DNA from: Takakia lepidozioides
Taxonomy: Eukaryota; Plantae; Bryophyta
Assembly (NCBI GenBank): GCA_030704615.1
Contig: CM060731.1
Location: forward strand, 79,918,001-79,982,000
Direction of reading: 5' to 3'
Length of the DNA stretch: 64,000 nucleotides
Shown piece by piece: positions 1 to 41,204 of this stretch (position 1 is its first letter; the number at the start of each line of letters is the position of its first letter). Below the pieces are notes generated by a model. That model did not search any database. It saw only the letters and a list, made by a program, of their open reading frames with translations, and was not told the DNA's origin. The translations under genes and the position numbers were made by a program.

Positions 1-259
1 GCCCCCCACAGGTAATCATCCCATTATCACACATAATACAACACCCTTATGCCTTTCCCTTTATGCAGCCTCTCCCTCATTTGGGCGTGAATGGTCAAAA
101 CCGAACGTCGCTCCTTCCACTCCTCACTCACTCCTTCTAAAACCACAATCAGATCTTGCATGAGTACTACTCTCTCAACCCTAAACTTTGTGGAATACAC
201 TTTACATGCATTGAGAAGATTAAATAAAATAATTTCCATGCGAGGGGGAATGACGCTTA

Positions 260-858
260 TACCTTGCGTGGTACTTTTTTCCCTTGGACATCATCCCGAT
301 ATCGGTCTTTCCTCTGGGCACTTGGTGAGACGCAAATCCTCTCCGTAGTATAGGGTTTTATCACATGGACATGCATGAAAAATCTTATAGTGCATCCCCA
401 CAGAGTCCAAGACTTCGCGCGCCTCTTTCCGCGACCGTGGCATCTTGCGGTTTCAAGTGTGGAGCAATGATGTAGTCTGCAATAGTTTGCATTATGACAG
501 ACATCCCAACATTACTTATGCCAAATCGAATTTGAAGATTGAGCAAAAGTAAGATTGTTGAAAGTCGACTCACTTTCGCCCTTTCGTACAAGGGAGTTCT
601 CGCCTCCCTCTCCATGTCATTTGAGGGGGCCATTTCAGGATCATCGATTGGTCGGGTTCCCTCTCCATGGGATGCATCAGCGCCCACATGATGCATTAAG
701 AGATCCTCCATGGCTTGCACATCCTCCTGGTTAATTCCATGCTCATTGTTGTTGTCATTGTCATTGTCACTGTCATCGTAATCGGAGGTCCCAATCATCC
801 CCGGGGAACTCGTAAGATGCAAATAGTTCGCTGCCAGCCCTAATAGTCCTACTAGCAC
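260..858 (-). pseudogene. CACTA Tnp2/TnpD-type transposase N-terminal region, frameshifted
   Basis: Acidic stretch, then TPLYERAKVSRLSTILLLLNL; after a frameshift MPRSRKEAREVLDSVGMHYKIFHACPCDKTLYYGEDLRLTKCP...VPRKV. This matches the PLY..SKLS / IHACPNDC.LY..CP.C / P.KV pattern of CACTA transposases. Confidence 0.8.
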
Positions 859-1273
859 ATGTCATCACAAACATGTGCATCCCCTCACAGTATACCGACG
901 TATGACCACAAAAGCTCTCATGCCCATCGCTTCGCTCGTCCCATACTACATTGGTTCTCCTAGGATGACCAAAAGAACTGTTGACCAGCCCAACAACATT
1001 GCCGAAGATGTCGGGGTCACCATCACAAAATCTGATCTCGATGGGAGACAACCCCCGTCTACGTACATCCTGTCTTTTGACACACAAAGGTAGGATATAT
1101 GGGGCTTCGAGGCGTAATGTACAAAACTCCGCGGAGGTGTAGTGAAACGAGTCCACCATGTTGTTTCTCCGTGGATGAACCACAATATCATTGACCGTGA
1201 ATAAACCCCGACCCATAGCAGGGTCTGTAGCAGCTCTCACAACATACCGTCTCCCCCAATACTCGAACTCCAC
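773..1273 (-). CDS. SET-domain (lysine methyltransferase-like) ORF inside the CACTA element
   Basis: GRGLFTVNDI (GxGLFA motif), GNVVGLVNSSFGHPRRTN (GN..RFINHSC.PN motif) and ASRTIRAGSELFASY (A.R.I..GEEL..DY motif) in canonical order. Same frame as the Pro-rich ORF 1313-1570, separated by one TGA. Confidence 0.7.
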   Translation of the reverse strand: MEFEYWGRRYVVRAATDPAMGRGLFTVNDIVVHPRRNNMVDSFHYTSAEFCTLRLEAPYILPLCVKRQDVRRRGLSPIEIRFCDGDPDIFGNVVGLVNSSFGHPRRTNVVWDERSDGHESFCGHTSVYCEGMHMFVMTCASRTIRAGSELFASYEFPGDDWDLRLR

Positions 1274-1519
1274 ATTTTCTCGGATGGGGGTGGGAGGGTC
1301 GAGATGATTCCCTCAATAACGAGGGTGGACGGTCCTCAGTAACATAGTCCTATGCGCTTCCCATCGGGGGCGAGGATCCGGCTTAGGCCGCCCAAGCCGA
1401 AGGGGAGGAAACCTAGGGCGAAGCCGACCCCTCCTAGGGGTTCGGGGGGCACATGCACGTGGAGGTGGAGGTGGTTGAGGATGTAATGCCGGAGGTGCAA
1501 CCGGGTGTACAACGTCCGG

Positions 1520-2440
1520 ATCGGGTGCACACTCTCCACATCGTCGGCGTGCTTTTTGAAGGTTAGCCACGCCCGCTTCTCGGCAAGGTTGCGGACATCT
1601 TGCTCCAACAAGAAATCATCTTGTGTCTATGCATCTCCCAACCCGGTGTTGTTCATGATGTGCTCTTTATGTTCCATCATGATTGGGGCAACAGACAGGC
1701 CTCGGCACAAACATTCAACGACCCAAGCTTTCAATTCTTCACTAATGTGTGGGTGCATAGGCATGGCGGGTGTTCCTGAACTCAGCCGCCTTCCCATGTA
1801 AGGTTTTCTCTTTTGGGTCTGTATGCTCCATGTTGTTGTAGTACGTGAGGATACATATGTCGGGGGCGAGGTAGCTTTGCTGGACCTTGAAACAACATTA
1901 GCAACCACGCTTGTAAGACTCTCCATACTCGGACTTATTTTTCCTTGGGCCTTTATGAAGGTGAGATGTTCCAGCACCCACAAGAGGTCCTCTACGCTTC
2001 AGTTTTGGATCCTCCACTATTGCATTGTTGGTGCGCTTGTCATCCGGGCCGTAGCAGCATTGATACCTGGACATTAAATTCAAAATCGATATCCATCACA
2101 GTAGATGGGAAACAAAAATGGCAACACACATGCAATGATTGTACAAAAGGACTGTGAGGATGGTGTACACATAGTACTGTTCATGAATGTATTGCCTATG
2201 GGCTCTTTTCGCATGTCGGGTTGCACTTTAGTATGGTCACTAACCCAAAACTGAGTGGGGTAGTCCACCAAACTCTCCTCTCCAAGGATGAAGTCATCAA
2301 CTCTATCCCAAGGTATGTAGGCCTTCTAAACATTCACTCGCACACCCGTATACCCATATTGCGTCTCACTCTTCCAATGGAGGTCATTCGTGTTGAAAGC
2401 TCCTGGTTTTCGTGTTTTCAAACATTGTCGAAGAGGCTGT
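1520..2440 (-). pseudogene. N-terminal fragment of plant SWIM zinc-finger / MULE-transposase-related protein (At1g60560/At4g13970-like)
   Basis: Stitched frames give FNTNDLHWK..AYIPWDRVDDFILGE..YPTQF, YQCCYGPDD, ESYKRGC*CCFKV, PHISEELKAWV..L.RGLSV, DDFLLEQDVRN..ADDVESV. These are colinear with motifs I recall for that family. Contains stops and frameshifts; truncated after DDVESV. Confidence 0.65.
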
Positions 2441-4261
2441 ATAAGCGGGCTTTCCGTTTCCAGTCTGTCGTGGCATTCTGCTTGCACATCCATGCCCTGT
2501 ACAGTGTAGAGGACATGCTTCAAAACCTGCAAGAAACGTGCGCAGTGCCCTGGATACGAGGGACAACGTGCAAGAGCAACAGTGCGCACGTTTAGGGTTT
2601 TGGCAAATGGCAGGCGCCAGGGATAAGGTTTGGGTTTAGGCCCTAAAAATGGAGGGCTCAGATGGGATTTAGGAGCGGACGGTCTAGATCAGGCCTCGTC
2701 GGCGGACTGGAAGTTGGGGAACTGTTGCAGCAGATTGGCGGGCAGATTGACAGGGTGGACGTGAAGAGACTGGCACAGCAGACCGGCCGCAGCGGGCGCG
2801 GCTGGGGACCGCGCGGGGCGGCGGGCGGGGGGGGGGGGGGGGGGCGCGTCCGTGCGTAGGGCCCACCGCTCAGGCCACACGTGCGCCATAATGTCGCTAA
2901 TATTGTAAAATGAGAGGCGCCTTAAAGCACGTGCAAGAAGGCGTGAGGTACACGGAGGCCCTGCCATTGTTTTTACTGATATGAAGTTTTATGGAATGAT
3001 GTTATGGCTAACAAGGCGTGATATACACTTAAGCCCTGTTGTTGACTAATTTGGTATTTAATAGGAGTGCATATACCGTGCACATATCACTCTTTCACCT
3101 ATATACTAGTACAACATTGGTCTCTATTTAAATAAATAAAAATAAAAATAAAAATACTAAAATATATGTACTATTTATTATAGCATATTACATATATATA
3201 TCTTCATATTATATTATGTCCTCATTCATAACTTATCACAAAATGGCATTGTGGGCTTGAGTAGAACACATAAAACATGAGGAACCTTTGATCACTTGGG
3301 ATATAAACACATATTACCATTTGATCTATGAACAAATGAATATACATGATAGACAATCAGCCATGAATAGAAAAAATTAAAAACATAAGGAGCATGTGAC
3401 CCACTTGAGGTATAAGGTACTTCACGTTGCATATGCATGCATACTAATGTAGTCACTGCTCAAGGCCAACAAAAAAATGAGTGTAACATGTGCCCAATTG
3501 GGATCTAAAAACTTTCATGTTCCCAATAAGTCTCATGGGAACAACCCATGATATAAGGTTAAGGTCACTTTGGCCAACTTGATGCGTAGTTCCTACCCTG
3601 TCGGGCAAGGCCAACAAAAAAAAGGTCTGGTAGTGCATTCCACCGGAGTGGAATGCACCGCCGTGGCCAAGCGCGCCAATATGCGCTAGAAGGAGCAGAT
3701 AATAACAAAGAGAAAAATCTCAAAGTGCTTTATGTCCATTAGAACTGGTGAGCACGCAGTCAAACCCACCCTTTATCCAATCCAAGGGTACCATTGGGTT
3801 TCACCTTGATGTCCCCCCTCCTAGGTCCCACGCTCCTACGGTCCCTTCCTCCCTCCCTTCCTCCTCCTTCCTGCTTCGCCGTTCTCATGTTCCTCAGCTC
3901 CCCCGCTCCCATGTTTTTGGTTCCCCTGCTTCTTGCTCTTGTAGCTAGGGAGTGTGGAGAAGTGATGTGGATTGGTGGAATGGAATGAACGGCACGTAGT
4001 CGCACTGACCCAAACGGCTTCGCAGCCGTATACAGGTGGTAAAGAATAGAATAAAGATTAGCTTTGCAAGTACCAAGAGGACGCAGCCTGGTATATTACC
4101 ACAATGAAACTACCATTTATTTTTTGTATTCGGATAGGTTTTAAAATGGTGCCGTCGATGAAGACGACAGCTGGGTAGAAGAAGAAGGAAGCCAAAACAA
4201 AAGACAATTTAACACAATAGAATGAGAAATCATGGAAATGAACATTACTATTAGGATATGT

Positions 4262-7200
4262 GTTTTATAGTCATCATGCCCATATTGGAGAGCTTACAGT
4301 TGTTCAGTCAGAAGTAGATACGCGTCAGGGTGATCCATTAGGGGGACCTCTTTTTGCCTTTGCCCACTTCCGAGCAACGACGCGACCGCGTGAGCCTGGC
4401 GTGTGAGCGTGTGAGTGTACGCTCACACAATGGTGATGTGGCGTGAGCCTACACTCACAGCGCTGACGTGGCGCTGGTGCTGATGTGGCGTGAGCCCATC
4501 CAAGGTCGTGCCACGTCACCACAAAGATGGTGGGCCTATAACCGTGGAGCCTATAACTGTGGGATTTCACCATCTGAAGGTGAGATGGGTTAAGGGTTTA
4601 GGGTGTCCCCAGAGATCAACCTTGTGTTAACACGAGGTTGATTTCAAGTTCTCGAAATCAACCTTGTATTAACACGAGGTTGATTTCCGAGAATGTTCAT
4701 TTGAATGTGAATTGATGTGTTCGCAAATGAACAAATGAGTTTGAGGAACGAATGCAACAAATGGTAGACGCACGCACAACACGATTGATGACGTGACATA
4801 CACCGACAGACATACGATTTCATTTTATTTTTTATTTATTTTTTCTCCCTGGGGGGGTGATGCAAATCAACCTTGCGTTGACGCAACTTTGATTTGAGAA
4901 ATGAAAGCATCATTTTTTTGAAGTTTTGTTTTGTTTTTTTTTTTGGTTTTTTTTTCGCTCTCTGGGGGTGATGCAAATCAACCTTGCGTTGACGCAACCT
5001 TGGTTTGAGAATGAAAGCATCATTTTTTGAAGATTTGTTTTTTTTTTCCTCCTTGGAATCTTGCGTTGACGCAACCTTGATTTGAGAAATGAAAGTTTTT
5101 ATTTTTATTTTTTTTTTTTTTTTTTTATCCTGGGAGGGTGATGCAAATCAACCTTGCGTTGACGCAACTTTGATTTGAGAAATGAAAGCATATTTTTTTT
5201 TAGGACTGTTTTTTGCATTTTGTACGGTTGCTGGCCCTGTTGTTCTTCGTTTCGTGTCTTGCATTGCAACTCTTGCCAACCTGTTCTGCACCATGTTTTT
5301 TCATAAACCACAAAGACGCTTTAGGGATTTCATGGTGTTTGTCTGGAGAACATCTATCAATGAAAAGTGGATGTGAATTGGGGGGAAAGAACTTCGTTAG
5401 AACAAACTCATTCTCCTTCGTGTTCATTACGCAACAGAACATTGTACTTTCTGAAATATCCTATGCCCGTGGACAAAAACCATCCACAAACCACCTGTGA
5501 TTTCTCATCCGACCAAGATTTGGATGAGGGATGAGATTTCTCGGAAATTAAAGTTGGCAAATCTGGGGCGTGGTAGTCGCCTACAGTTCCGGGGAAATAG
5601 GTGGCATCCGCGGAATTAGGTCTTGCACGTGGCAAACCTTGCTGACGTGGCGTGAGCCTGGCTGGGCTCACGCGGCAAGGCTCACGCACAAGCATTCCCC
5701 ACTTCCGAGCTCTTTGCTCTTCTGCCCAAGCCTTCCCATCCTGCATATTTCCTTCTATTGCTGATGATACACACATCACTGGCCCTACTAGTGATATCCT
5801 GTTGGCTTTACATCACTTTGCTGACCAACTCCACTCTCTAGGGCTCACTGTTCAACCCTGCAAGTCCACAGTTTGGTCACCCTCTGGTCTGCCTTCAGAT
5901 TTTGTGCCCCCTACCGACTTTCTAGCAGCATCTGAAGGTGTTAGGTGTTCCTCTTGGCACTATCTTTTACACAACATCTTTCCTTCAAGACGCCTGCCTA
6001 CAGGATACCAGTCATATAGAGCTTCTTCCCAAACTAGGGGATATGCAGGTAGCCCATGGCATTCTCACCAAATGTTTTCTAAACCGACCTTCTTATCTCT
6101 TACGTTGTTTCCCCCCAAGTACCCAGTTTTTGGAGCTTCTGTCTTCTTTTGATACGACTGTTATGGATTTTTGGTCGTCTATTAGGCTTAGGTGCATTTG
6201 ATAATGAGGAGGGTTCCTTGGCATATCGTCAAGCTACCCTCCCGATCTCTTCTAGGGGAGTGGGCTTATTATCCACAGTTGCAACTGCCCCTGCTGCCTT
6301 CTTGGGTAGCTGGGCTCTAGTTGCTCCAACCTTGGCATCTCTATTTTTGTGTCAGCAGCACCCTATCCTCATGGAAGTGGTTGCCCACATCGACGATGGC
6401 TCTTTGCCCTTCCAACAATATCTTCATGCAGCACGAGACCTCATCCCGATACCAGCACAAGCTTGTCTACGACGAACAATTGGTGACTCAAGGCCTGGAG
6501 CACTTACAGGATACCATCATTGAACGCGTGCACTGATATTCCTTTCCAGCATGCTTTCCGATACTCCTTCAGATACACATCGGGCCAGACTTCTCTCTTG
6601 TGCTAGGCCTGGAGCAGGCGCCTGACTCACAGTACGACCAGCCATAGCACCATTCCGTATGTCCTCAGCTGTGTTTACCACCTCCCTTCGGATTAGACTT
6701 GGTCTTCTGCATCCCTCTGTGTTAGGACTACAGCGGTGTGTTTGTTGCCATCCTATCGACCCACTTGGTGTCAATCTTCTTCGTTGCCATTGCGGCGGAG
6801 AACGCACTGCGACTCATGACGTCGTCCGCGATGCAGTAGCTGCGGTTGCTTGTGATGCAGAGGTTCATGTCTTTCGAGAGCAGATGCACGTACTTCCAGC
6901 CCACGATCATTGTTCCAAATGACGGCGCGTTGACCTGTCATCTCTCATGACGGGCTGCGTACATTGGCGGACGACGTGGTCATCACTGATCCTACTAGGG
7001 AAAATCTCCTTCCACGCACAGCCTCATCACAGGGAGTTGCTGCTTCGGTAGCCGTACTGGGGAAGGAACGCGACTATCGGGAACGTCACCCCACAGACAC
7101 ATTCCTCCCTTTGGCGGTCGAGATCTTTGGTTGTTTGCATCATCAGTTCAACAACTTCCTTCGTACATTCGTACATGTGCCCATCGCGCAACTAAAACAA

Positions 7201-7406
7201 AAGCCTTGGAAGCCCATACGTCTATGTTCTTACAACTTTATTTAGACAGCGAATCTCTCTTGCTTTACAAAAGGCTCAAACTCTATCCATTTTGCATCGG
7301 GAGAGGTTGTCGGGGCAGTTTCATCTCGCCTCCTGGCACTTTCTGACCTACCCTCTTTCCTGTTGTCTGACCTTCTTCAGGCAGTAGGTGATACTACAAC
7401 AGTTTG
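4262..7406 (+). mobile_element. Decayed non-LTR retrotransposon with RT, CCHC and restriction-like endonuclease (CRE/NeSL/R2 group, most CRE-like), 5'-truncated and interrupted
   Basis: RQGDPLGGPLF (4322-4355), SIADDTHI, LGVPLG, QATLP..GVGL, GAGA*L, LRIRLGL, CVC..DPLG..LLRC..THDVVRD, DVVITDP, KERDY, FLPLAVEIFG. Many frameshifts. Confidence 0.8.
4376..5697. mobile_element. Non-autonomous insertion (MULE-like?) in the LINE RT
   Basis: CCCACTTCCGAGC is duplicated at 4363-4375 and 5698-5710; removing the insert rejoins AHFRALC. GCGTGAGCC motifs near both ends; internal palindromic tandem units. Confidence 0.7.
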
Positions 7407-9478: not shown

Positions 9479-12400
9479 TTAGCTGAATAGACTTTGCAAC
9501 CTTCCTGGCTGGTAGTCAGGAGAAGCAATGGGCTTCAAAGGTTGAGAGATGGCAGCCCCCTCAACCACCACCCTGCCCTCACTATGTAGGGTGTATGCCA
9601 CGTTGATGCCCTCCAGAATCAGATGATAAGTTACATTTTCTAAATTGGAGTTTGGCATGCCTCCACCTTTCTGACTCATATCTGGACCACTAGGTTGTTG
9701 CAAAGGTTCCAACTCCCCTGTCTTTCTCTCCCCCTCATCTCTGTCTGCCAGTTTGTCAAACTGGGCTAAATTTCCCTCAGCATCCTTAGGAGGGTTGTCT
9801 GAAAGCTGTGTGTGAGGTCTATCTACCCTATTGGAAGTGATTCCCATTTGGGCACTCATGTCCACTTGTTCTTTGACACTGACGATGCTGCTCAGGGCTG
9901 ATTCATGGAGAGTGCTCAAGACTCCAACGTGGGGTCTCTGCCGTTGGCTCAATGAACGAATATCTCTTGAAAGCACTTGCTTGATAAGAGCCCGAACTTC
10001 ATCACAGCTGGAGTATAGTGATTGCTTGCCCTGTACATATAACAAGCTCAGTATTTACCACCACAGCTAAGAACAGATGTCTGAATCTTGCTCCGGATAG
10101 AGATAGGCAATGCAGCACAATTGTAGCGCAGTGCCTCACAATGTGAAAATGCATTGCTTGAGGGTTGGAATGCAGACTATCCACACCCTACAGTATTGAA
10201 CACAAAAGCTGACAAGGGCCAATGTTTGTTTAGGAGATAGGTCACAATCCCCTGGTGATAAATAGATGACTCACCATCACCTCCCAACATTGTATAATAT
10301 CCCGCGAAAAGTTCCCAGTGAAACTGACTGATGTCATTGCTATCACATCATCCTCCCCTCCTGCCTGGACACAACAAAGGAGTTGTTGAAGTCCCTCCGT
10401 CTGGTGGTTCATATCCAGGGGGCCACACAAACGAGGAAAGAAATGAAAGGAAATGAAAGGTTCCTTTATGGTGTCTGCGGAAAGCTCAAAGAGCTTATTG
10501 GACAAGGGAAAGCATGAAACAAGAAAGAGAGTGGCCCTCAACAAGCAGCCCAAAAACAAAGGGATCGTCTAACAGTCAACCACTCACACAGGAAAGAATG
10601 TACTCATAGAAGTTGTTTGCCGTAGCCTTGATGCCATTGACCCCGCGCTCAGTTTGAACGGAACACAAAGGGACAGAAACTACCTTTGTCAGGGGCTGAC
10701 GCCGGTAGTATGACTAACCTTGGAACAGACAATTAATCTGAGTTTTCCAGATATCCTCTAGAAATCCCATCAATCTGCTGTGTGTGGTTTGCGCAATAAC
10801 TAGGCCCCAAAGGGGCCTGGGCTTTTGGCTCAGTCTCTGAGACTTTCAAAGTTGGTAAACAGAGGTTCAGACACAATTCCCTTGATGGATTTGAAGAGGG
10901 CGTCTCTCTCGTGAGAGTATCCAGGACAATGAATCAGAAAATGAATATTGTCTACAGGTTGCCCGCACAATGGGCAATTGCAATCCCTCCTTCCTCTCTG
11001 CATCTGTTTGCTGTTAAAAGGTAGGCTTACCGCCCTGACTTTAAATTTCAGTCTAGTGCCGAGGGTGGGTAAACCCTTGAGGTCATCCATGATGGCGTCT
11101 CCCATGTCACAGACTGGAAACAAGTTCAGGGAAGTTTTCTGCCTAACTTCATTTTCATCAGACAATTTCCTGGCATTAGACATGGCTTTGGACACTACAG
11201 AAAAGGCAAGAAAAGAAAGAGAGGGCGAAAGGAAGAAAGGGATTTTATAACGTCCATGCAAGCCAGGGCTCCTTATGGGGGGAAAGAGCGAGAACCTTCA
11301 CCCATGATGGCGCTGAAGCTTCAGGAACAGCATCGCAATAAGGAAGATATGGTTTCACATCCAAAACTGGCTGCAATACACTCCAACCACACATCTCAGC
11401 AATGATTCATTCACTGCATAAAGTACAACAAACAGTACTTGGAGAGCCTCTGAGAGAGAGGACATATATGCTCACATAATACATGGCTTGTGGCCTTAAA
11501 CTTCTGCCCCCAGTGTGAATGGACCAGATCTGATTTCAAGAAAAAGAAAGAGATGTAGTTCTCATTAGACTTCACTTTCAATAGCCTGGGCCCCCCACTG
11601 TTTCAGCAGAGTGAAAAAAAAATGGTGGAGAGGCTTGCTACGATGAAAGGGGAGAGGGTGCCTTTACTGCTAAGAACTATGACAGCGTTCCAGTTCACAC
11701 TATTATTAAGTCTATTATAGCACTTCTTGATGCTGTCTACCAGGATAAGAGGTTGAACTGTTAGATCACTATGTCCATCACCACCAATGGCTTGCACAAA
11801 TACTTTCACAGTATCCTTCAGTTTAGTGCAAAAACACTGGTAAGTGGTCATGTTTTTGTTTCCCAGCTTTTTATAGCGACAATCAATCTTATTAGTAGAT
11901 GTCATTAAGCCTCAATTCTCACTTTCCAGGGGTTTCACTTGTTGGCTGCTCTTAGCGCGAAGGCAAAATGCATTACTACTGCGGACATGAACCAGAGAGA
12001 GAAACAAAGACCTGTTTAACCACCAACAGTCATATTAGCGTGCAGTATCAGGATCAAAATTCAACGGGCTATACTGACGCCAGCATAAAATTCCAAGAGA
12101 AACACAAAGGCTGACAGGACCAGTGAGCAAGGACGGGGAATAGTGATGAACAACCGTGCCATCCACTAAGTCAGCGCCAGAAAGCAGCAGAGTTGGCCCT
12201 TGCACACCTTCCACCTGGTCGGGTATACATCCAAGTTTTAGTGTTGGATCGATAAGAGGCACAGTACAGGGGATAAGTTATACGTAACATTCTTCTGAAA
12301 CCTATTTTGGAGAAATATTCAGACCTCGCACACAATTCTTTAATGCCAACATACCAAGGCAGGGTCAGTCCATGCTAGAAGTGAGGTTCTTGCTGACAAT

Positions 12401-15400
12401 AACTCCGACCCTAGATGTCACCTTAAGAGAGAGACAAGACTGCCAAACTAACCTTGGCAACCGTAAGCCCAATTGGGCACGGGCGATGTGGTGTGCGTGT
12501 AGCAAATACTCCAAGTTTGCCCCCATCCAGCCTTGGCACCCGCACCTAACTACACACAACACAACCCATTTGCAAGAAAGATGAGAAAAAGATTTTTTTG
12601 TCTAGTTGGCTTCAGTTGTCATGGACTAGGTTAGCAAGACTAGGTTAGTGAGTAAGCAAGGCTGGAAATAGAAAGACACATCAGAAGCCGAAGAGACTTA
12701 TCACTAAGCAAGGGAAGGTGAACAGTCAAAATGGCGAAGGCCAAGGGTTAGGCCTTTGGGTAGCCAGTAAGGGAATACCAAAGGTATTCTCAGAGCAAGG
12801 GGGAATCCTTGGGGAGTATTTAGGAGGACCTGATGTTGAGACTCTGGGAAGGAGATACACAGGCCTGTCCTTAATGCGTAAGGATGAGAACATGGCAAGC
12901 ATGGCAAGCATGGCAAGCTATATGACTTGGAGAGTACTCCTTAGCCAGTAGCAAGATGAGGACAAGGTTGGGTGGTTAATTTGCTATACGCTGTTGATGA
13001 AGAGACTAGTTTACTAAAAATAAGACTGGACTGTGACATCAGTGGATAATAATCTTGCTCTTGCTCTTGCTCTCTTATTCTCCCACTTGCATCAACCTCT
13101 TCTTTCTGGTGTGTTTTCAATTCCAGCACATGAATGAACTCTTCCCTGTAGCTGGATTGCTGCTGGCTATCTGCAAGTGCTATGGCAATTCTAGGTCGAT
13201 CCTATGTGCAATGGTTGGCGAAGACCCCCCTCTTGGCTTTGGAGGTTTACTAGAGGTTTAGGATGCGGTGGAGTGTCTAGCCAAGGGTGCTATCTCTCTC
13301 TCTCTCTCTCTCTCAACCTCAAGACAGGACCACCCTGTCAAACAGGCTAAGTCCTGGCAGAAGAGAGTAGAAGAGATCCTCAAGGACCTGGACCTGGATC
13401 CGCAAGTCTTGACCCTGCTGGATAAATCTGACTTAGAGGCTGTAGTGTCCTCAGCCATGTCTGTTGCCATGAGATTGTCTGATGAAAATGAAGTTAGGCA
13501 GAAAACTTCCCTGAACTTGTTTCCAGTCTGTGACATGGGGGAGGACATCTTGGATGACCTCAAGGGTCTACCCACTCTCGGCACTAGACTGAAATTTAAG
13601 CTCAGGGCAGGAAGCCTACCTTTGAACAGCAAACAGAAGCAGAGAGGAAAGGGAGAGTGCAATTGCCCGTTGTGTGGGCAATCTGAAGACAGTATTCATT
13701 TTCTGATACACTGTCCGGGGTTCTCTCACCAAAGAGACGCTCTCTTCAATCTATTAAGGGAATTGTGCCTGTACCCCTGTTTACCAACTTTGAAAGTCTC
13801 GAGGCTGAGCCAAAAGCCCAGGCCCTCCTGAGGCCTAGTTTTTGGGCAAATCACACACAGCAGATTGATGCTTGTGTGAAGGGATTTCTAGAGGATATCT
13901 GGAAAACCCGGATTAATTCTTTATATGGAGGTAAGTCTTACTACCAACGTCAGCCCCTGACAGACGTAGGTTCTGTCCCTTTTGTTCCCGCTCAAACTGG
14001 GCGCGGGGTCAATGGCCACAAGGCTACGGCAAACAACGTCTTATGAGTACAATCTAACCTCAAGGGCCTTCCTACCGTCGGCACATCTGTTCAACCCTCA
14101 AAATCTTGAGGCTGAGCCTAATGCCCCTTGATGGGGTCTAACCGCTGGGCAGATCACACACACCAGATTGATGCTTGTATTAAGGCCTTTCTAGAGGTAA
14201 TCTGGAAAGCTCACACATTGTTTATATCAAAGTAAGTCCCACTACTAGAGAGTGTCTGTTCTGCCCATACTGGGCACGGGGTCTATGGCCAGAAGGCTAC
14301 GGGAAACAACGCTTACGAGTACATTCTCCCTCTTTTCTGCTCCCTCATATTGGACATAAGCTGCGTGCAATCACACAAATGGGGATGTTGTTGCCTGTGA
14401 AAGAGCTTAGGCAATTCCATAATAAGGTCATCACCCATTTATACTGAGGTTTTTAAATAGGGGAGGCACTGGCCACAAGGCTACAGCCTCATTCTAATGA
14501 CCATTACAGCTATACAGCAACCTTCTGATTTTATGGGTACGTTAGCTCAGAGAAGCAATGTTCAGAGCCCAAACCTTATGGCTTTCACATCGAGATAGAA
14601 GTGGGCCTTAACCCTTACGGATACAAGAAATGGGTCAGAAGTATCCAATGTCTGAGATAAAAACCTTAGCTTTGAAATCCTTGTGGGCTGGCTGCTTCCA
14701 AAGACATGGCAGATCTGTGTTTTCATGAAACACGTACAGCAGCCAGCAGTGTGAATATTGTGCCAGCCCGTGGAAGGCCTCTGCAGGCACCCCCTTGCTT
14801 GACAACACTAGGGTTGCTCTTGCTAGAGAAACCAGCATTGGTTGCCGGGGCGTTCCATTCCTGCCATGAACTAGTAACTTCAGGAAATGGAAAACAAGAA
14901 TCAGATAGAGATGGAGGGAATCTTCTGTAAAATGTTATACAGGTAGTGTTTTTGTGTGTATGTGTTTGTGTGTGTGAGAGACAGATGGGGCTGCACCATG
15001 ACTAAACAGAGCTACTAAAATAAGCGAAATGTGACTTTGGGGAAGTCTTTCAACCTAGACAAGCTAAGAACCAAAACTCGCCGTATGATCACCTGGTGGA
15101 AAAGCAAGAACGAACAGTGCCAATGGGTGTCATAGGATAGGCCCCCACGTTCCCTTCCTTCAAGTCCTTGCTGCTCAGCAAAGCTTTTCTCAGCTCCTGC
15201 ATCAAACATACCCAGTATCCACTTATTGGCGACAGTGTTTTAGGACTTAGCAAAAAGAGAGATACATGGCAACTATTCTACTCAATCACAGTGCAACTTA
15301 TTCAGTAGTCGCCGGGGAATTGCAGGATTTCAGAGATTTCTTTCTATAATAATATTTGTGGTTATGTACAATTTAGGTGTCCCAGTGTGTAACATCTTAT

Positions 15401-18297: not shown

Positions 18298-21200
18298 CAT
18301 GTCAAAGCTAGACCAAGGAAAAATCCAAACACAATGTGTTGTGTTTACCTCTTTTCAACTACAGACAGCCTACTTTAGCCAGATCTGCCTCCATACCTCC
18401 CTTTACATATCCTTACTGGAAAACCAGTTTTTAGGTGTTCTTAGTGGCAATCAAATGCACACTAGGTAGGCCCTCTCACAAACGGATCTTTCGCCTCACT
18501 TTCATATTCAAGGAATCAACAATAAAAGTAGGAAGTGCACTAGGGTCTCCTTAAAGGCAACTCCTTTCCATGAAGGTACAAGCTCATAGATCCTTCAACC
18601 CATTCAGAGCAAAACTGCAGGAGTATGTGTACAAAATCAACACGTACAAACAGATTTGATGTTTGAGAGAGCTCAAAGCCTCACTCCCTTAGTCTCTTGC
18701 CCTTAGTGGCATTTCCTACAACAAAAGAAGGTGAAGTGGCCTCACCAGGGTCCATCACAGCCAACCAACAAACCAACAGGGTAGTGATCCCGTTTTTCAA
18801 GTGTTGAAAGAGCCTCTTGCTTGTAGCCGTAGTTCAGTAGTAACTACTGCTTCTTCAGCTCTTGCCTGTTCATCTTCCAAATGAGAAGAGTGGCTGGGCT
18901 TCCTTTTGAGGTAGCTGCTGTAGGTTAAGACCTAGGGAAAACACTAATGAGTCACCCATTTCCCCTTTCTATTCTAGGTGAAATATTCTGAACTGCATAA
19001 TGGGATCAGGCAATTCCTGAGTGCTGTCACAAAGACAACCATTTTGTGAGAGAGAGTGAGAGAGAGAGAGAGTATATGCATTTGTACAATGAAAGTATTC
19101 AATTCTCGAATTTGTGCAGGGCCCCCTAAATTCGTCCGATGTAATTGCACTCCCAGAAAACACCACCAAGAAGAGGCTAGTCTGTGGAATAGACCAGACA
19201 GACCGGGTGGATCCATGGTTGCTGGCGGATAAAGACAGTCGGTTTGCTGAGTTTTATGGTGTGCAAATTCACTATAAAATGGCCCCCCCCTCCCCCCTCT
19301 CAGGTTTTTGCATCCTCCCTACCTGATGCCTCTCCTTTCTGCAATGCTTATGGTTTGCACTCAATTTTCTTCTGTATCTTACACTCATGCACACACACAC
19401 ACACACACACTCACCTACCGCTCGATACATAACAAAAGTGTCTTGAACATGCACGACGTTCATATTTAAATTTTCAATGTCAGTAGTTTTGGAGGGCAAT
19501 GTCTCTGATCCGTATCGTGTTTTATCTAGACACTTGGAAAGCTGTTGCAATTCGTTTATTTGGAGGGTGATCCTCCTTTCTGAAGTTGCATATGTAGCTC
19601 TGGCGCTCTGTAAATGCCATCTGAGACTCGATACAAATGTATCCCTGCAACTTGGGGTCACAAAATCAGTTAAAAGGACATCTATTTACTGCACGTGTCT
19701 GGACTTGGAACCTTATACACAGAAGGGGAGTTTTCGTGGAAATGAGTTGTGTATAATACAGGAAGAGCTTCTTTAAGAATAATTGCAACAGATCCCAGAC
19801 TGGACATAACATCAGCTGGTCATCACTGTGCAGTCTTCCTTGCTGAAGGCAGCCAGGGTCACCTTTGTAAAGATGACACTGTATTAACTGTGACCAATTT
19901 CCTACGAGGGGATTCATGTAACTGGGTTACTGTAGACTAATGTGATTGAATGAAGTGCCCCAGGTACAAGTACTCATCTCCTGGGTTTCACCCATATTTT
20001 TCTGCTGCTACAGATTCACGGGCTCCCATGGTGGAGTCAGGGGGGAGTCAAACACATCATCCTGTGAGACTTCCAGCAATTCTTTTGCACGGGTTTGGGG
20101 CATCCATTTTTTCATGGGAGAGGGTGCTTAAGCCCCTTGCAGCCATCATGGACTCAGTTGTGGTGGCATTTGACAGGCCTGCATTTGGCCTCACATCTCG
20201 CACAAAACACAGAGGTGAAAATGGCAATTTTACTTCCTTTCCTTTCCTCTAATGTGACATTGGTATTGAGGACAGCGAGAGTAAAGCTCAACTCTGCAGA
20301 CGAGAGCTTTCAGAGCTGAGATTGCCACGGTTGCTAGATGCATTCACTCTTCCTGCCTTTCAAGTACACATTAGAGTTGTTTTACAGTCTGCATTGCATT
20401 AGTTGCTGTCAATTTAAGTGTAGTGGATGGATTTTGCAGTGGCACAAAGGGTGGAGGAGGGGGGTCCAACCCCCGACCTCAACCCATTTGGCGTTGAATT
20501 CTCTGCAGCTGCAACGCGGGCGTTTATTGATTTTCTCCATGCCGAGAAAGCTGTTCTCATTGGGTAAGCTCAGGACTGTTCTTTCTTAAATCTTTTCCAG
20601 TTGGATACAACACTGAGTAGAGCAATACATGTAATACTTTTTTTTCTTCTCTCAGACTCTCATCAAACTGTAGGGCAGGCACTCAACAGGCACTCCGCAG
20701 GCTGCATTGTTGCATTGCAGGCGTTTCTAGAGGCGCCTGAGCGTGTGGCCGGCCTGGTGTTGGTGGCTCCTGCACTAGCAGCACCGATTGTAATTGGTGA
20801 AATTCAGGCATCGGCTGAGACGGCTGAGGGTAGGGTCGTGCTCTACAACATTTTTTTCCTTTGTTAGTCTCGATTTGAGTCTTATGTCTCGGCACTAGAC
20901 TGAAATTTAAACTCAGGGCAGGAAGCCTACCTTTGAACAGCAAACAGAAGCAGAGAGGAAAGGGAGAGTGCAATTGCCCGTTGTGTGGGCAATCTGAAGA
21001 CAGTATTCATTTTCTGATACACTGTCCGGGGTTCTCTCACCAAAGAGACGCTCTCTTCAAATCTATTAAGGGAATTGTGCCTGTACCCCTGTTTACCAAC
21101 TTTGAAAGTCTCGAGGCTGAGCCAAAAGCCCAGGCCCTCCTGAGGCCTAGTTTTTGGGCAAATCACACACAGCAGATTGATGCTTGTGTGAAGGGATTTC

Positions 21201-23988
21201 TAGAGGATATCTGGAAAACCCGGATTAATGCTTTATATGGAGGTAAGTCTTACTACCAACGTCAGCCCCTGACAGAGGTAGGTTCTGTCCCTTTTGTTCC
21301 CGCTCAAACTGGGCGCGGGGTCAATGGCCACAAGGCTACGGCAAACAACGTCTTATGAGTACAATCTTATGCTTGTATGAAATGTGGGCGATGGCTACAA
21401 GAGAGAAAAGGGAAAAAAGAGAATGTATTTTGTTGTTTGCCGTAGCCTTGTGGCCATACACGCCATGCCCAGTTTGGGTGGGGGAAAGGGGGAGAGAGAG
21501 GCGAGAGCAGGGCACTAGAATTGACATAAACTCAGATACCGAGTGAGGTTATAAGGATGAGAGAAGTTTGAAAGCAATTTAAAAGCAGTTCTGCTAGCTA
21601 TTTTAAAGGGACTGCAAAGTTTTCTTTTTGGCACCTGGTGACTGAGTTGGGCAGTCAGACGGATGGAACAGATGACGGAAAGCCGAGACCTGCTTGGAGG
21701 GCTGCCTTTGCATGGCTGCGGACTTGCCTTATGTGGGTGTTGGGTCGAATTGCAAAAATGCTACAAATTTTGAAAACTGCTGTTCAGGCATTGTTTGAGG
21801 CAGTTGTTCCAGGAAAAATGATAGCATCTGTGAAAGCCACCGTCCGCGCAGGCTATGAGAGATTGTTGGTGACAAGTCTCCGAACAGTCCTTGCAATTCG
21901 GGCGGTAATCTTTGTTGCTTCTAGATGTGCTTCTGTGTCCCCTACCTGTGGTAACAAAGAGAAAGAAGAAAGAAATAGTTATTTTATGCACAGTAGCTCA
22001 GAGAGAGAATGACATATGACATCTTTTTTCTCGACTTGTAAGTTTATGATCAAGGTTCATGAAGTTATAGCACATTGGGTGGTGATTTGTGGACCAGCGT
22101 AGACAAAGCATGCTCCTAGCCACTAACTTGCAACAAGTGTGCACATTTAACCTTGGTTGAGCTGGCAGTCACAAGTTCTGATGGTAGGCAGGCAGAGAGT
22201 AAGGAAGGAGCTCCACATAGACAGTTTGTCGTAGGCTTGTAGATGGAGCAGAATAGGAAGAGATCATGATGGAGCCTTCTCCAGTGTGGAAAGCTTGCTA
22301 TTGAACTTCAACAGATGGATCTGCTGACTTGGACATGAATCTTTGTCCATCTGTCCTCATTGCCAAGGGTGGGCCTTGCCGTTTATCAATGCATATGTAA
22401 CACACAGACCTAGTTTTACTGAACGAGACTCTTTTTCTTTGTGAGAAAATTCTTTCAGGTACAGATAATTATGGATAACCTCGGGACGCGGGCAGTGCGT
22501 TTGGCATGGTATGATACAAATAAAGCTAACAAGTATGTGATCGATGGCTATACCAAGGTAAAGAAGATTGGCTGATGTTCTTTGTGTTGAGTGTAACTGC
22601 TCCCTTTGAGAGTTGAATGGCCTGACAAATCTGTGTGAAATCCGGCTATGGTGATGAGAATGTCTACAGTCCTTTTTGAGCTTTGCAGCATTGTTTTGCA
22701 TTTGTAATATGTGGGAGCAGCGTGTCTTTGCCAGTACTGTACTGTGCAGCAGTTTGAATTCTCAAGCTGAGAACAAGACTTAAGATGTGATGTTTGTAAG
22801 GTCCTTCTTTTGAGTGATTTATTGTTCTAGCATGCTTTCACAATTCTTAAGAAGAGATGATTGTCTCTCTCTTTTGCCTTCTTCTTTAGCAATGGGACTG
22901 GCAGCACAACCGCAGCTGCCTTATCACTTCTGAGGGGGAAAGCACCAGTGCTGAAATTAACTTAGTACAATTTCAATGTCAGCAAGCACATCAGCTCTCT
23001 CTCTGTAACCAGATTGTCAGCAGATGTCCGCGAGTGCTATGCCGGTTTGGGGTGGTCAATGAGTACATTTCTGTGGGTGTGTCTGTGGCTTTTCATAGCT
23101 GCATGTTTAATATATGAGGTGACGCGGGGCTAAAGTAGTAGTGCTGGACCTGGACATATTTGAGTGCTGGCCAGGCATACACTCCCTCCTCTGTGCCGCT
23201 GTCCCAGATTTGAACCATACTTGTGCCCAGACTAGCTTTGGAACTCAACTCTTGCAAGCTTAATGGGTACTGCTAGTATTCAGAGGGAAATGGTAATGAC
23301 TGCACTTTATTTTTGATACATATTTGGCAGCCGTTGAGGTGCAAGGACTGGGAGAAAGCATTGCTTGAATTTGTGATTGCACTGTTGGTAAGTCCGACAG
23401 CTGGCTTGCAACCGCAACAACCACTGGGCCGACGTCTGAAAGATATCTCTTGCCCAGGTAATGTAGTGGCGAAACTTCAATGTTGTTCCTTAGCCTTGCC
23501 CTTGGACCGGTCATGCCATTGAGGTCCTTTAGTTGATGATAAATAAGGATATGTGAAACTGGTGTCCACATGATGTTGCACTGGCTCCAACCTTCACCTG
23601 AGTGCAATTTGGGAAGCCTTGACAATGAATACTTCTGGAGAATTTGTGAGTGTCTATCACTTGAGTGTCTATCACTCAGTTGATGTACAATGGAGGTGAC
23701 TGCATGAGAGAAGACAAGAGGACCTAATTTGAATGCATGTATTGATGCATGGCAGTGCTGGTGATTACCGGGGATACTGATCGGCTAGTGCCGTCATGGA
23801 ATGCCAAGCGACTCGCAGATGCTTTACCACAGGCGCATTTTGTAAGCATCAAGCAATGTGGGCATTTACCCCATGAGGAGAAGCCGGAGGAGTTTCTCTC
23901 CCTTGTGCAAGATTTTGTTGCACAACTTGATCCAAGAGCCGGAGTTGAGCTTTGCACCAGCATGAATAATGTTTTTGCACAATTCTGA
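17533..23988 (+). CDS. Alpha/beta-fold hydrolase (esterase/lipase-like), multi-exon, probable N-terminal transit peptide
   Basis: Exons: 17533-17793, 19120-19303 (LADKDSRFAEFYGVQIHYK), 20014-~20213 (LLHGFGASIFSW..AFDRPAFGLTSR), ~20440-20563, ~20690-20830 (G-HSAG nucleophile), ~21640-21904, ~22459-22557, ~23331-23457, ~23756-23988 (ITGDTDRLVP; CGHLPHEE). Ser-Asp-His triad motifs are present. Confidence 0.9.
18235..18297. repeat. (GA)n microsatellite
   Basis: Direct reading; abuts a LINE-end copy. Confidence 0.95.
20887..21366 (+). repeat. LINE 3'-end fragment, near-identical to ~13577-14055, in a hydrolase intron
   Basis: Very few differences from the 13.6-14.0 kb copy; same CCHC peptide and tail. 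Confidence 0.85.
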
Positions 23989-36628: not shown

Positions 36629-36942
36629 TGTCAAGTTATTTTACCACTAGTGTGAAACTAGCTAGGAAATAGCTAGCTTTTACATATTGACATTTGGGAT
36701 TGGCCCAAGTGTCAATCCAGGGGTCAAGGCAGATTTAGGCCCTGGAGTGGTTATCTTCACGGCAAGCGCGGGAGGCTCATCTTTCTCGAGTTGAGCCTCA
36801 CCGCGCCTAGCTATGGCGCCGTAGTGTGGATTCCCATGGCGTGGGGTGCACTTGGCTTGACTTGTATTGAGTGATGAGGTTATATATGCATGAGTTTATG
36901 CTTCAGATTGTGAGCTCGTGCTTGTATTCTTCTTCTTTATCA
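36629..36942 (+). repeat. Terminal repeat A1 (314 bp; second copy A2 at 46981-47296)
   Basis: A1 and A2 differ only by four single-base indels in short homopolymer runs; no substitutions seen. Confidence 0.95.
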
Positions 36943-37629
36943 CTCGAGAAAGATCAGCTCGTATCTGTGAGTGCCAGATACGAGTTAGTTGTAGCACTTG
37001 TGGTTTTTGCTTGAGAATGAGAGAAACCAAGTTGTTATGCAAGGAGCACCGTGGAGCTCTTGGTTGTTAGAAGCGGAGGCGATGTGGGTTACGAGGTGGT
37101 AAACCTTGGCATTCGATCTTCAGCTTCAGAGATGAAAGCACCATACTGTAGGTAATTCCAGAGCACCTTGATGGTTTCAGATTGTGTACATGCATGAGCA
37201 AGCACGATTGGGAAGAGGACCAGTCAAGAGCAGGTTATAGTGGCTTTGGTGGCAAAGCTGAGAACTGGACTTGGGAATGCGAGCTGTCATTGTATGAAGG
37301 ATTGCAAGACCAAGCGAAAGGGCTGATTTGGCTTGGGGCAAATCAGTGCACTTTGTGGAGTATGGTGAGATTGGGTTTCAATCTCGAGCTTCAGCATTGA
37401 GAGGGCTCTTGTCATGGCGAGAGCAGGGCTGGAACAGGAGCTAAGAGGTGCGGCAAGGCCATGGAATGTGCACCTAGGGTTTCAGAGCTTGGAAGAAGAG
37501 CTCTTGCACCACAAGAGAAGTGTCTTGTGGCTGGAAATGTAAGCCTTAGGGTTTCAGGAGCTTGGCAAAGGCTATGGAGTGCTTAGTCTTGTCTTAGAGA
37601 GCATCAAGGAGCCAAGGAGCCAAGATAGG

Positions 37630-38030
37630 GGGCTGATATCTCTTGTGTGAAGAGGTTGCATGTGTGGAGCATGTATTCAGCTCATTGAAGCTTCCATCTT
37701 CAAGCTTGGAGGGCAAGCAAGGAAGAGGGAAGGGCTGACTTCCCTTATGTGAGGGCAATGCATGTGTGGAGCATGCTATCAGGCTTGAACTTTTTCAGGT
37801 GTGGGAGTGCAAGAAAGGAAGGAAGGGGCTGGTTTCCCTGTAGGGCATGTGGAGCATGCTTTCAGCCTGCTGAAGCTTGTATTTTCAGGTTTGTGGGTGC
37901 AAGAAATGAAGCAAAGGAGCTGATTCTCTTATGGTGAGAGTGGGGCATGTGTGGAGCATGCCTTCAGCCCATTGAGGCTCTTGTTTTCAAGCTTTAGAGA
38001 GCTAGAACGGAAGGTCTAGGGCTGGTTTCC
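37630..38030 (+). repeat. About 4 degenerate ~95-bp tandem units in the retroelement leader
   Basis: Recurring core GCATGT(GT)GGAGCATG..TCAG at ~37658, 37760, 37845, 37945. Confidence 0.75.
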
Positions 38031-38467
38031 ACTTGGAGTGAAAGAAAAGCACTTGTAGGGCCTATGTGAGTTGGGGTTTCAACTTCAAGCTTGAAGGGAG
38101 CGCAACTCTTGAAGCAACAGGTGTAGGGGCTGGAATAGGCTCTAAGACAGATGCTATGGCCAAGGAGAGTGCTTGAATGAGTGCTCACAAGGGCTGGGAA
38201 CCAGCAGGGCTTGGTTGTTTGCCATTGAGTTTAGTGGCGTGTTTGGGGAGGCTAAGTGAGAAAGAAGGCTTGGTTTGTGGCAACCACCTCATGGCTTAGG
38301 GCTACTATGGTGGTGTGTGGGAGCCGAAAGAGCAAGGATACCTTGCTGATTTCCTCACAGCCACCATAGCTCGGTGGAAAGAAGCCTAGAGTCCAAGAGA
38401 CACAAACCCTAGCTTGGCGTGGCTAAACCCCTTGGAGAAATGGCTAAACTGCCAGAGCGGCCATGTG

Positions 38468-39060
38468 TGGGGCTGTGACAGGCTGTGGCAAGCTGTGACG
38501 GGCTGTGACGGGCTGTGACGGGCTGTGGCAAGCTGTGACAGCTTGTGATGGGCTGTGACAGGCTGTGCCCTGTGGCCTTTGGGGCTGTGACGGGCTGTGT
38601 CAGGCTGTGACAGGCTGTGCCCAGTGGCCTTTGGGGCTGTGACGGGCTGTGCGGGGCTGTGACAGGCTGTGCCCTGAGGCCTGTGGGGCTGTGACGGGCT
38701 GTGACAGGCTGTGCCCATGGCCTTTGGGCTGTGATGGTGTGAGGGGCTGTGACAGGCCGTGGCCTGATGGCCTTTGGGGGCTGTGATGGGCTGTGAGGGG
38801 CTGTGACAGGCCGTGCCATGGCCTTGGGGCTGTGAGGGCTGTGAGGGGCTGTGACAGGCCGTGCTGAGGCCTTTGGGGCTGTGACGGGCTGTGAGGGGCT
38901 GTGACAGGCCGTGCTGAGGCCTTTGAGGCTGTGACGGGCTGTGAGGGGCTGTGACAGGCCGTGCCTGAGGCTTTGGGGCTGTGACGGGCTGTGACCAGTG
39001 AGCTGTGTGGGCCTGTGCTGGTCTGTGGTGGCCCGTGTTGACCTGTGGATGGCCTGTGCT
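38468..39060 (+). repeat. 10-bp minisatellite (GGCTGTGACR) with a higher-order ~45-55 bp period, in the retroelement leader
   Basis: Dozens of GGCTGTGA(C/G)(A/G) units interspersed with GGCCTTTGG. Confidence 0.95.
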
Positions 39061-39260
39061 GACGTGGGACTGGCATGTGGTCTGGAAGGCCGAATTTTGA
39101 AGCTCGTGGAGGGCGGTTTGAGGAGTATCTTCATGATATTCCCATGGTCAAGTTCAGGTGTAGGCTATGTTAGGAACTTAGTATTCCAAACCATAAGCCG
39201 CAACAGGTTCTCTACCCGGTTACCTTGTGGAGAGGGGGTTAGGGACATGTTCATGACCGG

Positions 39261-41204
39261 TTGAGTGTCAACACGGAGGTGCCACTAGTTGCTGGGGACA
39301 GTGCCGGTTCGAGCACTAGCGATACTAGTGGGTACACGAGACGAGGTGTGCGGTTTAGGCCACCTTCACCTCCTGTGTCTTCCACGGAAGGTTCTGATTC
39401 GGATTGTGAATCAGGAGGGCTCATACCGGCGGTGCAAGTTGTTTCTTTGCCATTGTTGTGGGACACAATGGAGGAGATGTATGGAGCTACCAAGGGGCCA
39501 CGAAGGTACTCTGGGGCGGTGGGCACCATTGAGTTGGATGATTTTATCCAAGAGTTTGATAGTTGGTGTGATTGCAGCAAATGCGCAATCCACAACTATT
39601 TACGCCGTTCATGGCATGGAAAGGGCTGTTTCAGCACCTTGAGGGGCCGCCTATGGATGATTACCATGAGTTCAGGCGGGGGCATGAGGTTGAGATCGAG
39701 GAGTGGAGGATGTACTGGTCACCCGACTATGTCTCCATCACTAGGGGCACTAGAGCCACGAGGGCAGTGGCTACACCTGCCGCTGCACCGGCAGCTTCAG
39801 CAAGCAGCAGTGGGACTGGTGGTACAGTAGCTACGACGTCCACCCAAGCCACTACCGCACCAGCACTAGCACCCGTGCCTGCCTTCAACCCTGTTGTGGA
39901 GTTCTTCGAAGAGTTGAGAGGGAACTACCAAGGGGTGAGGACAGAGAAGTTGCGGAGCTTGCAAGAGTTCCAACGGAAGCCGACCGAGAGCTTGAGGGAG
40001 GCTTTCACTCGCATGAGGCGCTTGATAAATGTAACCCAAGGGGTTACGGAAGCTCAGGCAGTCCAATTCTGGTATGGGATATTGGACAAGGAGCTGAGGA
40101 GAAGGGTGCGGGATGCAACTCTCCTACAAGCGGCCCAACCCACCTTAGCAAATGTGTTTTTGCTGGCAGAGCGGATAGAGCTCAACATGGTGGAGGAACG
40201 AGTGGTCATGGTGGATTTGCTAAGGAGACACCACGGGGGTAGTGGTGCTCCTAGCCAACCACTACCTCAACGTGCTCAAGGCAACAAGGGGGCTCAGGTG
40301 AAGCTCAGGGAAGGGCAGAGAGGACCTCAGATGCAGGGGTCTCTCCCTTCATTTGCTGGCCAACAACGGGCGGATGTGGTGTGCTGGACATGTGGAGGAC
40401 CCCATGTCAAGAAGGATTGTCCAGAGGGAGGCAAAGGGCCGGCACATGCACAGCCTGCACAGTTACAGTGTGGGCATTGTGGCAAACACGGGCATGGAGA
40501 GGCCAGTGTTATGGTTTGCATCCTGAGTTGCGCCCAGGCCAGTTCCAAGGGAACAATGGTGGCCGGGGGCGAGGTGGAGCAGCCCAGAGGGACGAGGTGG
40601 CCAGCCACGAGGCCAAGGGCAAGCTCAACGTGGCCAAGGACGCGGAGGTCAGGGTGTTGACCAAGGCATGGCCAACCGGCTTCAGCAGCTAGAGCAGAGG
40701 CTCGCTGCCATGGCTACAGCTCAGGTGGTACCGGCTCTAAGGCCGGATGGTCCACCTCCTGCTCCTGAGGGAGGAGATATGGGAGGCATGGGATTCATGT
40801 GTGGAGCAGCACTACCACTAGTGCAGGTGGAGTCTGCTGCAGCCGTGACTCGAGGAGCAGCACGAGTTCCTGAGCCACGAGGTGCAGAGGTGGAGTTGGA
40901 TCCACAGCGTGGGGAGGCAAGCCGTCAGGCTAGGCTTCCTCAGTCATTCACATTGGCGGAGACAGTGTCGACGCCATCCATGGCACCTAGTTCTCGCCCG
41001 ACTGTTACCGAGGCGGAGGTTACTATGCCATTGGGGAGAGCTACACGGGTAGCACCACTACCTAGTGTTGCCAAGGCTACGGCAGCTAGTGTGCTGCTAG
41101 GAGCGGCCACATCTGTGTGCCAGGCTCCATTGTTCTCGGCTACCATGATTGCGACGCCGGGGGTAAGACCAGCTGAGGTTCAGGCTGGCAGCTACACTCT
41201 GTGA
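39261..41204 (+). CDS. gag: Gag with two zinc knuckles (frameshifted in this sequence)
   Basis: LQEFQRKPTESLREAFTRMRRL..FWYGILDKELRRRV capsid-like region; CWTCGGPHVKKDC; CGHCGKHGHGE.QC (across a frameshift) followed by YGLHPEL. Confidence 0.85.

Follow-up and report, generated by a model that had tools for sequence, protein, structure and literature searches.

A SET domain in a dead, internally deleted copy of an abundant CACTA transposon family of Takakia lepidozioides

Introduction

SET domains methylate lysines, often on histones, and plants silence transposons by DNA and histone methylation. Can a plant transposon then carry a SET enzyme of its own, or is a SET frame found beside a transposase just a piece of a host gene picked up by one copy? 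This question is raised by a locus of Takakia lepidozioides (Bryophyta; assembly GCA_030704615.1, contig CM060731.1, positions 79,918,001 to 79,982,000; hereafter the window, meaning the whole stretch of 64,000 nucleotides that was analysed). In it the initial annotation, made from the letters alone, had placed a SET-domain frame inside a CACTA transposon, leaving the choice between a family with its own chromatin writer and a one-off capture. The counter-measure described in plants, VANC, acts on DNA methylation (accessible parts of PMC8616336 and PMC12730594); if a SET enzyme is encoded within a CACTA transposase gene, a transposon of plants would itself be a writer of histone marks, by means of a small and directly testable enzyme.

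Results

The frame encodes a SET domain

The SET ORF measures 179 aa from stop to stop and 147 aa counted from the first Met; the 166 aa of the initial annotation could not be reproduced. Its motif reading is borne out: a motif scan recovers the GxG motif as GRGLF (1213-1199), the N(H)S motif as NVVGLVNSS (1000-974) and the ELxxxY motif as ELFASY (829-812), with the terminal Tyr in place. The NSS in lieu of NHS is the family state, with Ser in 34 of 35 relative rows, and two solved bacterial SETs show NFS at this position, so that the His is not universal. By itself the ORF stays below the curated cut-off of the Pfam SET model (PF00856; 13.9 against 22.4 bits, E 0.077), and neither phmmer against the PDB nor a word-indexed search with this single ORF returned a match. 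A SET identity is nevertheless given by the family profile, the Atlas assignment (0.96) and the predicted fold: the PDB sequences that a SET-family profile of 36 rows retrieves at E up to 1, 54 in number, are with few exceptions SET or PR proteins (best E 1.3e-4). An AlphaFold2 model built with the 36-row alignment reaches a pLDDT of 74.8 and a pTM of 0.73 (pLDDT 33.5 when folded without alignment), the top Foldseek matches to this model are to SET7/9 (E 3.8e-4, probability 1.00), and in VIA-align the SET/PR proteins make up 50 of 50 among the matches listed. The best VIA-align Z is a moderate 9.9 (rmsd 3.5, 108 aligned residues, TM-score about 0.46). While SET7/9 and SET8 are among the best fold matches, no SET class stands out, either by profile (that same best E) or by VIA-align, where the top Z values are tied at 9-10. 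By its motifs, profile and modelled fold this is a genuine SET domain, and the family is predicted to encode a protein-methylating enzyme.

Table 1. Features of the element, in window positions
Feature	Positions	Strand	Basis
CACTA (Tnp2/TnpD) transposase, N-terminal part	257..783	-	motif order against a published alignment, by eye
SET domain ORF, degenerate in this copy	773..1312	-	Pfam, relatives, AlphaFold2, Foldseek, VIA-align
Deletion join, 6-nt microhomology GATTAC	778..783		loose contig ends on both sides
Two in-frame deletions in SET: 6 nt at 1088, 15 nt at ~1138-1144	1088..1144	-	loose ends in X1, X5, X8, X9
Pro/Arg-rich linker and pre-SET extension, SET frame	1313..1522	-	contig variants
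Single-copy junction with a few filler bases; 5' part of the SET/transposase gene missing	1523..1527		bridging X1 contig
Second high-copy ORF (ORF-A), N-terminal part	1527..2490	-	reading frame
Candidate CACTA end (3635-3631) and 17-nt subterminal direct repeat (3461-3477, 3606-3622)	3461..3635	-	depth drop, repeats
Inverted repeat of 11 bp, without mismatches and with a loop of 4 nt, extending over the candidate CACTA end	3633..3658		repeat search

SET and transposase are amplified together

Downstream of the SET ORF, on the same strand, lie the pieces of a transposase with the motif order acidic tract, TPLY, SRLSTI, IFHACP, KCP, RY, VPRKV. The same order is found, by eye, in rows of a 64-transposase plant CACTA alignment (PMC4158355, accessible part of the supplement), in which the ordinary enzymes have a Cys/His domain directly before the acidic tract. 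A Pfam scan of the pieces gave no transposase family match, and Atlas offers a lead of 0.80, to the Transpos_assoc cluster only. The DDE catalytic core would lie past the left edge of the window. The two frameshifts of this copy, at 448 and at 313/314, are absent from other copies.

Contigs of four runs from two samples were aligned to positions 1-4400. In X1 the SET sites stand 359-1,184-fold and the transposase sites 1,070-1,731-fold over the depth of the single-copy flank, figures which, by the tool's own warning on Logan contigs, are not copy numbers; in X5, the second sample, SET and transposase contigs have matching depth (34-39). A total of 4,059 contigs aligned in X1, at hundreds- to thousand-fold depth, and together with the unique flank, which points to dispersal, they describe a dispersed multi-copy family, whose size we take as hundreds to about a thousand copies. 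Because SET and transposase are amplified together, the SET is to be seen as cargo of the family and not as a one-off capture: it is very probably borne by the transposon family, and the capture of a host SET in a single copy is excluded. Of the two options of the initial annotation, that of a family carrying its own SET is thereby supported, helped by a Riccia gene model of like order (see below), and that of a one-off capture is not. No RNA run is listed among those that contain the sequence. The classification of runs X8 and X9 as RNA is a guess, and no silent stretch served as control, so their linker and SET contigs were not counted as expression and their lack of coverage at 700-763 was given no weight.

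This copy is a deletion derivative

The locus itself is a dead, internally deleted copy of this abundant CACTA family. Loose contig ends at 783 (seven contigs of X1 and one of X5) and at 778 (one each of X5 and X9), which in X5 and X9 run for 65-99 letters, mark the GATTAC join, and none of the contigs listed spans it. Since other copies leave the sequence at both sides of GATTAC, the overlap between the SET frame and the acidic transposase start is a deletion product, and an overlap of the two frames by design was considered and rejected. We infer that the family has an extra stretch here, of at least about 80-100 nt, with the true SET end and the start of the acidic transposase exon. Within the SET, the 15-nt deletion takes out the P-Y-x-G motif of the family. 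The aromatic-x-G motif of SET domains carries the active-site Tyr; gone from this copy, it is kept in other copies and, as Tyr or Phe, in 33 of 35 relatives.

Elsewhere the TGA at 1313-1315 is a Trp codon, since 1313 T>C accounts for all the depth in each of the four runs X1, X5, X8 and X9. The linker upstream of it comes in length variants of +27, +33, +39 and +42 nt, and in another copy it continues beyond 1522 (a loose end in X9). At 1523-1527 an X1 contig covering 1470-1608 bridges the junction with no differences, at a depth of 76.2 against 61.4 for the unique flank, and loose ends at 1522, 1527, 1530 and 1539 in X2, X5, X8 and X9 show that other copies go on differently on both sides. 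The linker hence ends at 1522, and the frame from 1527 onward is that of ORF-A.

As a separate observation, contigs of X8 and X9 (depth 39 and 29) hold only the 79-nt piece at 1232-1310, with the same foreign flanks on both sides; a host transcript that has captured a fragment of the element is a possible source.

The upstream frame and the candidate CACTA end

Relative to single-copy sequence, the depth of ORF-A is about 960-fold at positions 1659 and 1959 and about 300-fold at 2348. It has no Pfam or PDB match; we assume a resemblance to the SWIM proteins that plants have derived from Mutator, of which At4g13970 is the type. X8 and X9, the two presumed RNA runs, both have contigs with related sequence (84-91% alike). 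No Cys/His motif was found in 1527-3635.

Beyond ORF-A, depth across 3529-3969 falls from 18,345 through 1,367 to 61, and the number of subterminal repeats varies among copies. The depth drop and the 17-nt direct repeat fit a repeat end in the vicinity of 3635. With 156 occurrences of CACTA in the window, once per 410 bases, the motif alone is at chance level. Moreover, the single-copy junction separates the candidate end from the SET-transposase part, so that it may or may not terminate the same element. The second end, and with it any 3-bp target-site duplication, would fall beyond the window. At 3685, just outside the hairpin, depth is about 15-fold, some other loci thus sharing the flank, which suggests a shared flank or a preferred target.

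These features bear on the first alternative, that the locus is a chimera in which SET and transposase belong to one CACTA family, with ORF-A and the 3635 end of a second element joined on by deletion. This we regard as rather unlikely; it concerns structure, and can be combined with our best explanation of the SET. A fusion would account for the single-copy junction, both sides of which continue otherwise elsewhere, for the fall of depth to 10-50-fold between ORF-A and the end, and for the presumed resemblance of ORF-A to Mutator-derived proteins. ORF-A and SET are, however, of about the same depth (in X1 about 960-fold vs 810-1,180-fold; in X5 contigs of 27-30 vs 34-39), lie on the same strand, and the end does read CACTA. 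A single family for ORF-A and SET is favoured by their equal depth in two samples, but not by the dip that separates ORF-A from the end.

Four of the features that the initial annotation had taken for element design thus turn out to be those of a broken copy. The overlap of SET and acidic start is present here on one strand, but as a deletion join; the Pro-rich in-frame linker is real up to 1522, but its stop is not the family state and 1527-1570 is ORF-A; and at 3635 the depth drop upholds a repeat end, which the frequency of CACTA and the intervening junction leave short of an end for the SET.

SET relatives in other land plants

A phmmer search with the SET ORF against 1.84 billion representatives found 37 proteins with E no higher than 0.001. 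Pfam SET matches 28 of these (19 pass the cut-off) and leaves nine without a match, and none of the 37 has a pre-SET, histone-reader or class-specific partner domain by Pfam. The best full-length identity is 27-38%, and no near host gene was found among these representatives. A profile search of proteins of 805-2,295 aa likewise gave no match and no fused SET form, which by the tool's own note is weak evidence. Riccia sorocarpa supplies five and Ginkgo one of the 30 relatives whose species was looked up, with two further Riccia members in the same clusters, and Ceratopteris richardii accounts for two of 22 SET profile matches. The seven Riccia proteins are spread over at least four large contigs and hence fit a dispersed repeat. 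For the relatives named here, no match to a host SET class stands out among the canonical plant classes (E(z), ASH1, TRX, SU(VAR), ATXR5/6 and SMYD).

Over 35 relatives, at 22-34% identity, the GxG Gly is kept in 31, the Asn/Gln in 34, the Glu in 33 and the terminal Tyr in 29, and the aromatic-x-G column has Y in 22 and F in 11. The Phe form characterizes proteins P0048-P0055 and P0029, a group with Ceratopteris members; such a replacement of Tyr can shift SET enzymes towards trimethylation. In most of the 90 collected relatives there is no sign of a transposase, and the group that includes the Ceratopteris and Ginkgo proteins may consist of host genes or of cargo of other elements. A SET tree by a quick method (60 rows, with 29 partial and two non-matching rows dropped and host SET rows absent) places the window copy on a long branch (2.05), and we therefore claim no origin for the SET. 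A metagenome locus (L001) was rejected as a relative, because the match arises by chance opposite to the coding strand of what looks like a bacterial gene, and a viral contig scan for SET gave no matches.

Order of the proposed gene

A CxCxxC...H motif precedes the SET in two of the 90 collected proteins, with an apparent tail of it (H-x-x-R/K-Y-G) in three more, and an acidic tract follows the SET in three of 90. In the Riccia gene model P0030 the order is SET, acidic tract, and a transposase-like stretch which is 31% identical over 62 aa to the transposase start of the window (pairwise E 0.012). Compared with Pfam Transpos_assoc, the Cys/His part of P0005 gives a weak match (E 0.074, ranked third) and that of P0008 none; when the 90 relatives were compared by tBLASTn with the remainder of the element, only low-complexity noise resulted. 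While these single matches are weak and come partly from automatic gene models, they suggest a family order of Cys/His domain, SET and acidic transposase. Since the relatives place the SET between two parts that adjoin each other in ordinary CACTA transposases, we propose one gene with two products, and consider it likely that the SET is nested in the transposase gene.

Such a gene would start with the Cys/His transposase-associated domain. A transcript that is read through, or that uses an alternative acceptor, would encode Cys/His part, linker and SET as one protein, and a transcript from which the SET segment is spliced out would encode the transposase. The Cys/His part would tether the SET to the element, whose own copies are the predicted site of histone lysine methylation by the SET as a means to resist silencing, and the mark may favour expression or transposition.

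Selection on the SET frame

Among the 40 rows listed out of 61, the changes between this copy and the majority are silent in 8 of 16 cases (5.1 expected; P 0.09, not significant), and the private changes in X8/X9 in 4 of 17 (4.5 expected), as in neutral decay. Seven of eight listed indels have lengths in multiples of three (P 0.003), or four of five with the linker counted once (P 0.045); some of these in-frame indels lie in a Pro-rich repeat prone to slippage by triplets, and the 3 nt at 1269 come from contigs with the 79-nt piece only. In X9, a presumed RNA run, the single long contig has lost the Glu of ELxxxY to another residue. For SET function, the deep conservation of the catalytic-motif columns across relatives is a stronger argument than these counts.

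Other features of the window

A Gypsy-type retrotransposon occupies 36629-47296, its terminal copies at 36629-36942 and 46981-47296 being 98.7% alike, and within it lies a C5 DNA methylase frame (41882-43051; Pfam DNA_methylase, E 4.4e-13). This agrees with the initial annotation, which had counted the SET as the second transposon-borne epigenetic enzyme of the window. DNA methylase capture by retrotransposons is in print for dinoflagellates and charophytes (PMC5890265, accessible part). A hAT-like transposase follows, in long frames at 47387-49151 on the minus strand (Pfam E 0.17 only; CpG strongly depleted, 0.34), and there are two auxin-inducible SAUR genes (51410-52060 and 56867-57352; Pfam E about 1e-27). 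The regions 4612-5212 and 5650-7350 hold an imperfect palindrome of 76 nt, a tandem array with three to four units, each about 110 nt long, and decayed frames that we presume to be LINE-like; a Pfam scan of 6934-7245 gave no matches. One repeat has three copies (10594-11200, 13440-14055 and 20887-21367), of which two are 99% alike, and shorter pieces related to it occur in other places. By rough ratios, positions 1-3635 are depleted in CHG (0.47-0.77 vs 1.02 for the window) and less depleted than the window in CpG (0.58-0.88 vs 0.51).

Discussion

The best explanation, to which we give somewhat better than even chances, is that the locus is a dead copy of a family whose intact members carry the SET, likely in the transposase gene, and methylate histones on their own copies against silencing. 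For its functional part, a histone substrate and an action on behalf of the element, we see the chances as evenly balanced; this part is proposed by analogy, because of the general role of SET domains and the precedent of VANC.

An alternative is that the SET cargo is active but has a non-histone substrate, such as the transposase or a host silencing factor, or sets a repressive mark by which the element damps itself. It is unlikely in our estimate, though several observations are in keeping with it: SET7/9, solved with non-histone peptides according to structure titles, is among the best folds along with SET8, the 37 relatives are devoid of histone-reader and pre-SET Pfam domains, and neither profile nor tied Z values bring any one class to the fore. 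Against this, the solved SETs among the matches are mostly histone enzymes, and published transposon-borne chromatin factors have been interpreted as counter-silencing (PMC12730594, accessible part).

It is improbable that the SET is a functionless host fragment of the Pack-CACTA type, passively amplified with the element: host gene capture by CACTA elements is known (accessible parts of PMC4158355 and PMC8616336), the selection test is not significant and both partial copies in the runs guessed to be RNA carry damaging changes, but against this stand the lack of a near host gene in 1.84 billion representatives, with at best 27-38% full-length identity, the (weak) absence of a profile match among proteins of 805-2,295 aa, catalytic residues kept across liverwort, fern and gymnosperm relatives, and a family frame that is open where this copy is broken.

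Returning to the SET as a histone-methylating cargo, we tentatively put forward a wider possibility, less probable than the best explanation itself: that an ancient CACTA lineage of land plants, extending over liverworts, ferns and gymnosperms, has within its transposase gene a clade of SET histone methyltransferases of its own, one gene giving either the transposase or a Cys/His-tethered writer that marks the element's own copies and helped it to reach about a thousand of them. If true, no earlier case of a histone writer encoded by a transposon would be on record for land plants. The literature searched, which did not extend to Repbase Reports, bioRxiv supplements and most subscription journals, yielded no land-plant CACTA element with a SET, and the accessible part of PMC11982613 holds nothing on one. 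Some Riccia and Ceratopteris genes annotated as 'SET domain-containing' may be transposon cargo, inflating the counts of host chromatin genes. As the present copy is dead, its value lies in the family.

Comparison with known systems

Maize TnpA and TnpD are two products of one gene, made by splicing, and the proposed design is like theirs in this respect. With the plant En/Spm elements (transposase plus ORF2/TnpA) the locus shares the N-terminal motif order and a candidate CACTA end; it differs in having a SET segment before the acidic tract, where En/Spm has the Cys/His domain directly before it (PMC4158355, accessible part). The functional model is the VANDAL/VANC system of Arabidopsis, in which a transposon protein alters the chromatin of its own family; VANDAL is, however, a Mutator element, and VANC is no SET protein and lowers DNA methylation (accessible parts of PMC8616336 and PMC12730594). 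In SETMAR/Metnase, according to the source material accessible to us, a SET domain also adjoins a transposase, but as a single domesticated primate host gene, in contrast to the mobile multi-copy family seen here.

SET cargo as such is known from HarbingerS and oomycete MuDR elements (PMC12730594), and from Helitron captures and the red-algal Plavaka elements of the CACTA superfamily (bioRxiv 10.1101/2025.02.11.637652), each source being accessible in part. HarbingerS, MuDR and the Helitron captures resemble the Takakia family as DNA transposons with a SET lysine methyltransferase; they belong to other superfamilies and hosts, and nesting in the transposase gene is not described for them in those parts of the sources (PMC12730594; bioRxiv 10.1101/2025.02.11.637652). 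The Plavaka elements of Bostrychia, with the accessory gene PAG2, share high copy number, membership in the CACTA superfamily, SET cargo and mostly degenerate copies with the present family (bioRxiv 10.1101/2025.02.11.637652, likened by its description in the accessible part). PAG2, however, is a gene apart from the transposase, and its SET forms a fusion with an adenine methylase, whereas in the land plant Takakia a lone SET stands directly before a Tnp2-type transposase, likely inside the transposase gene.
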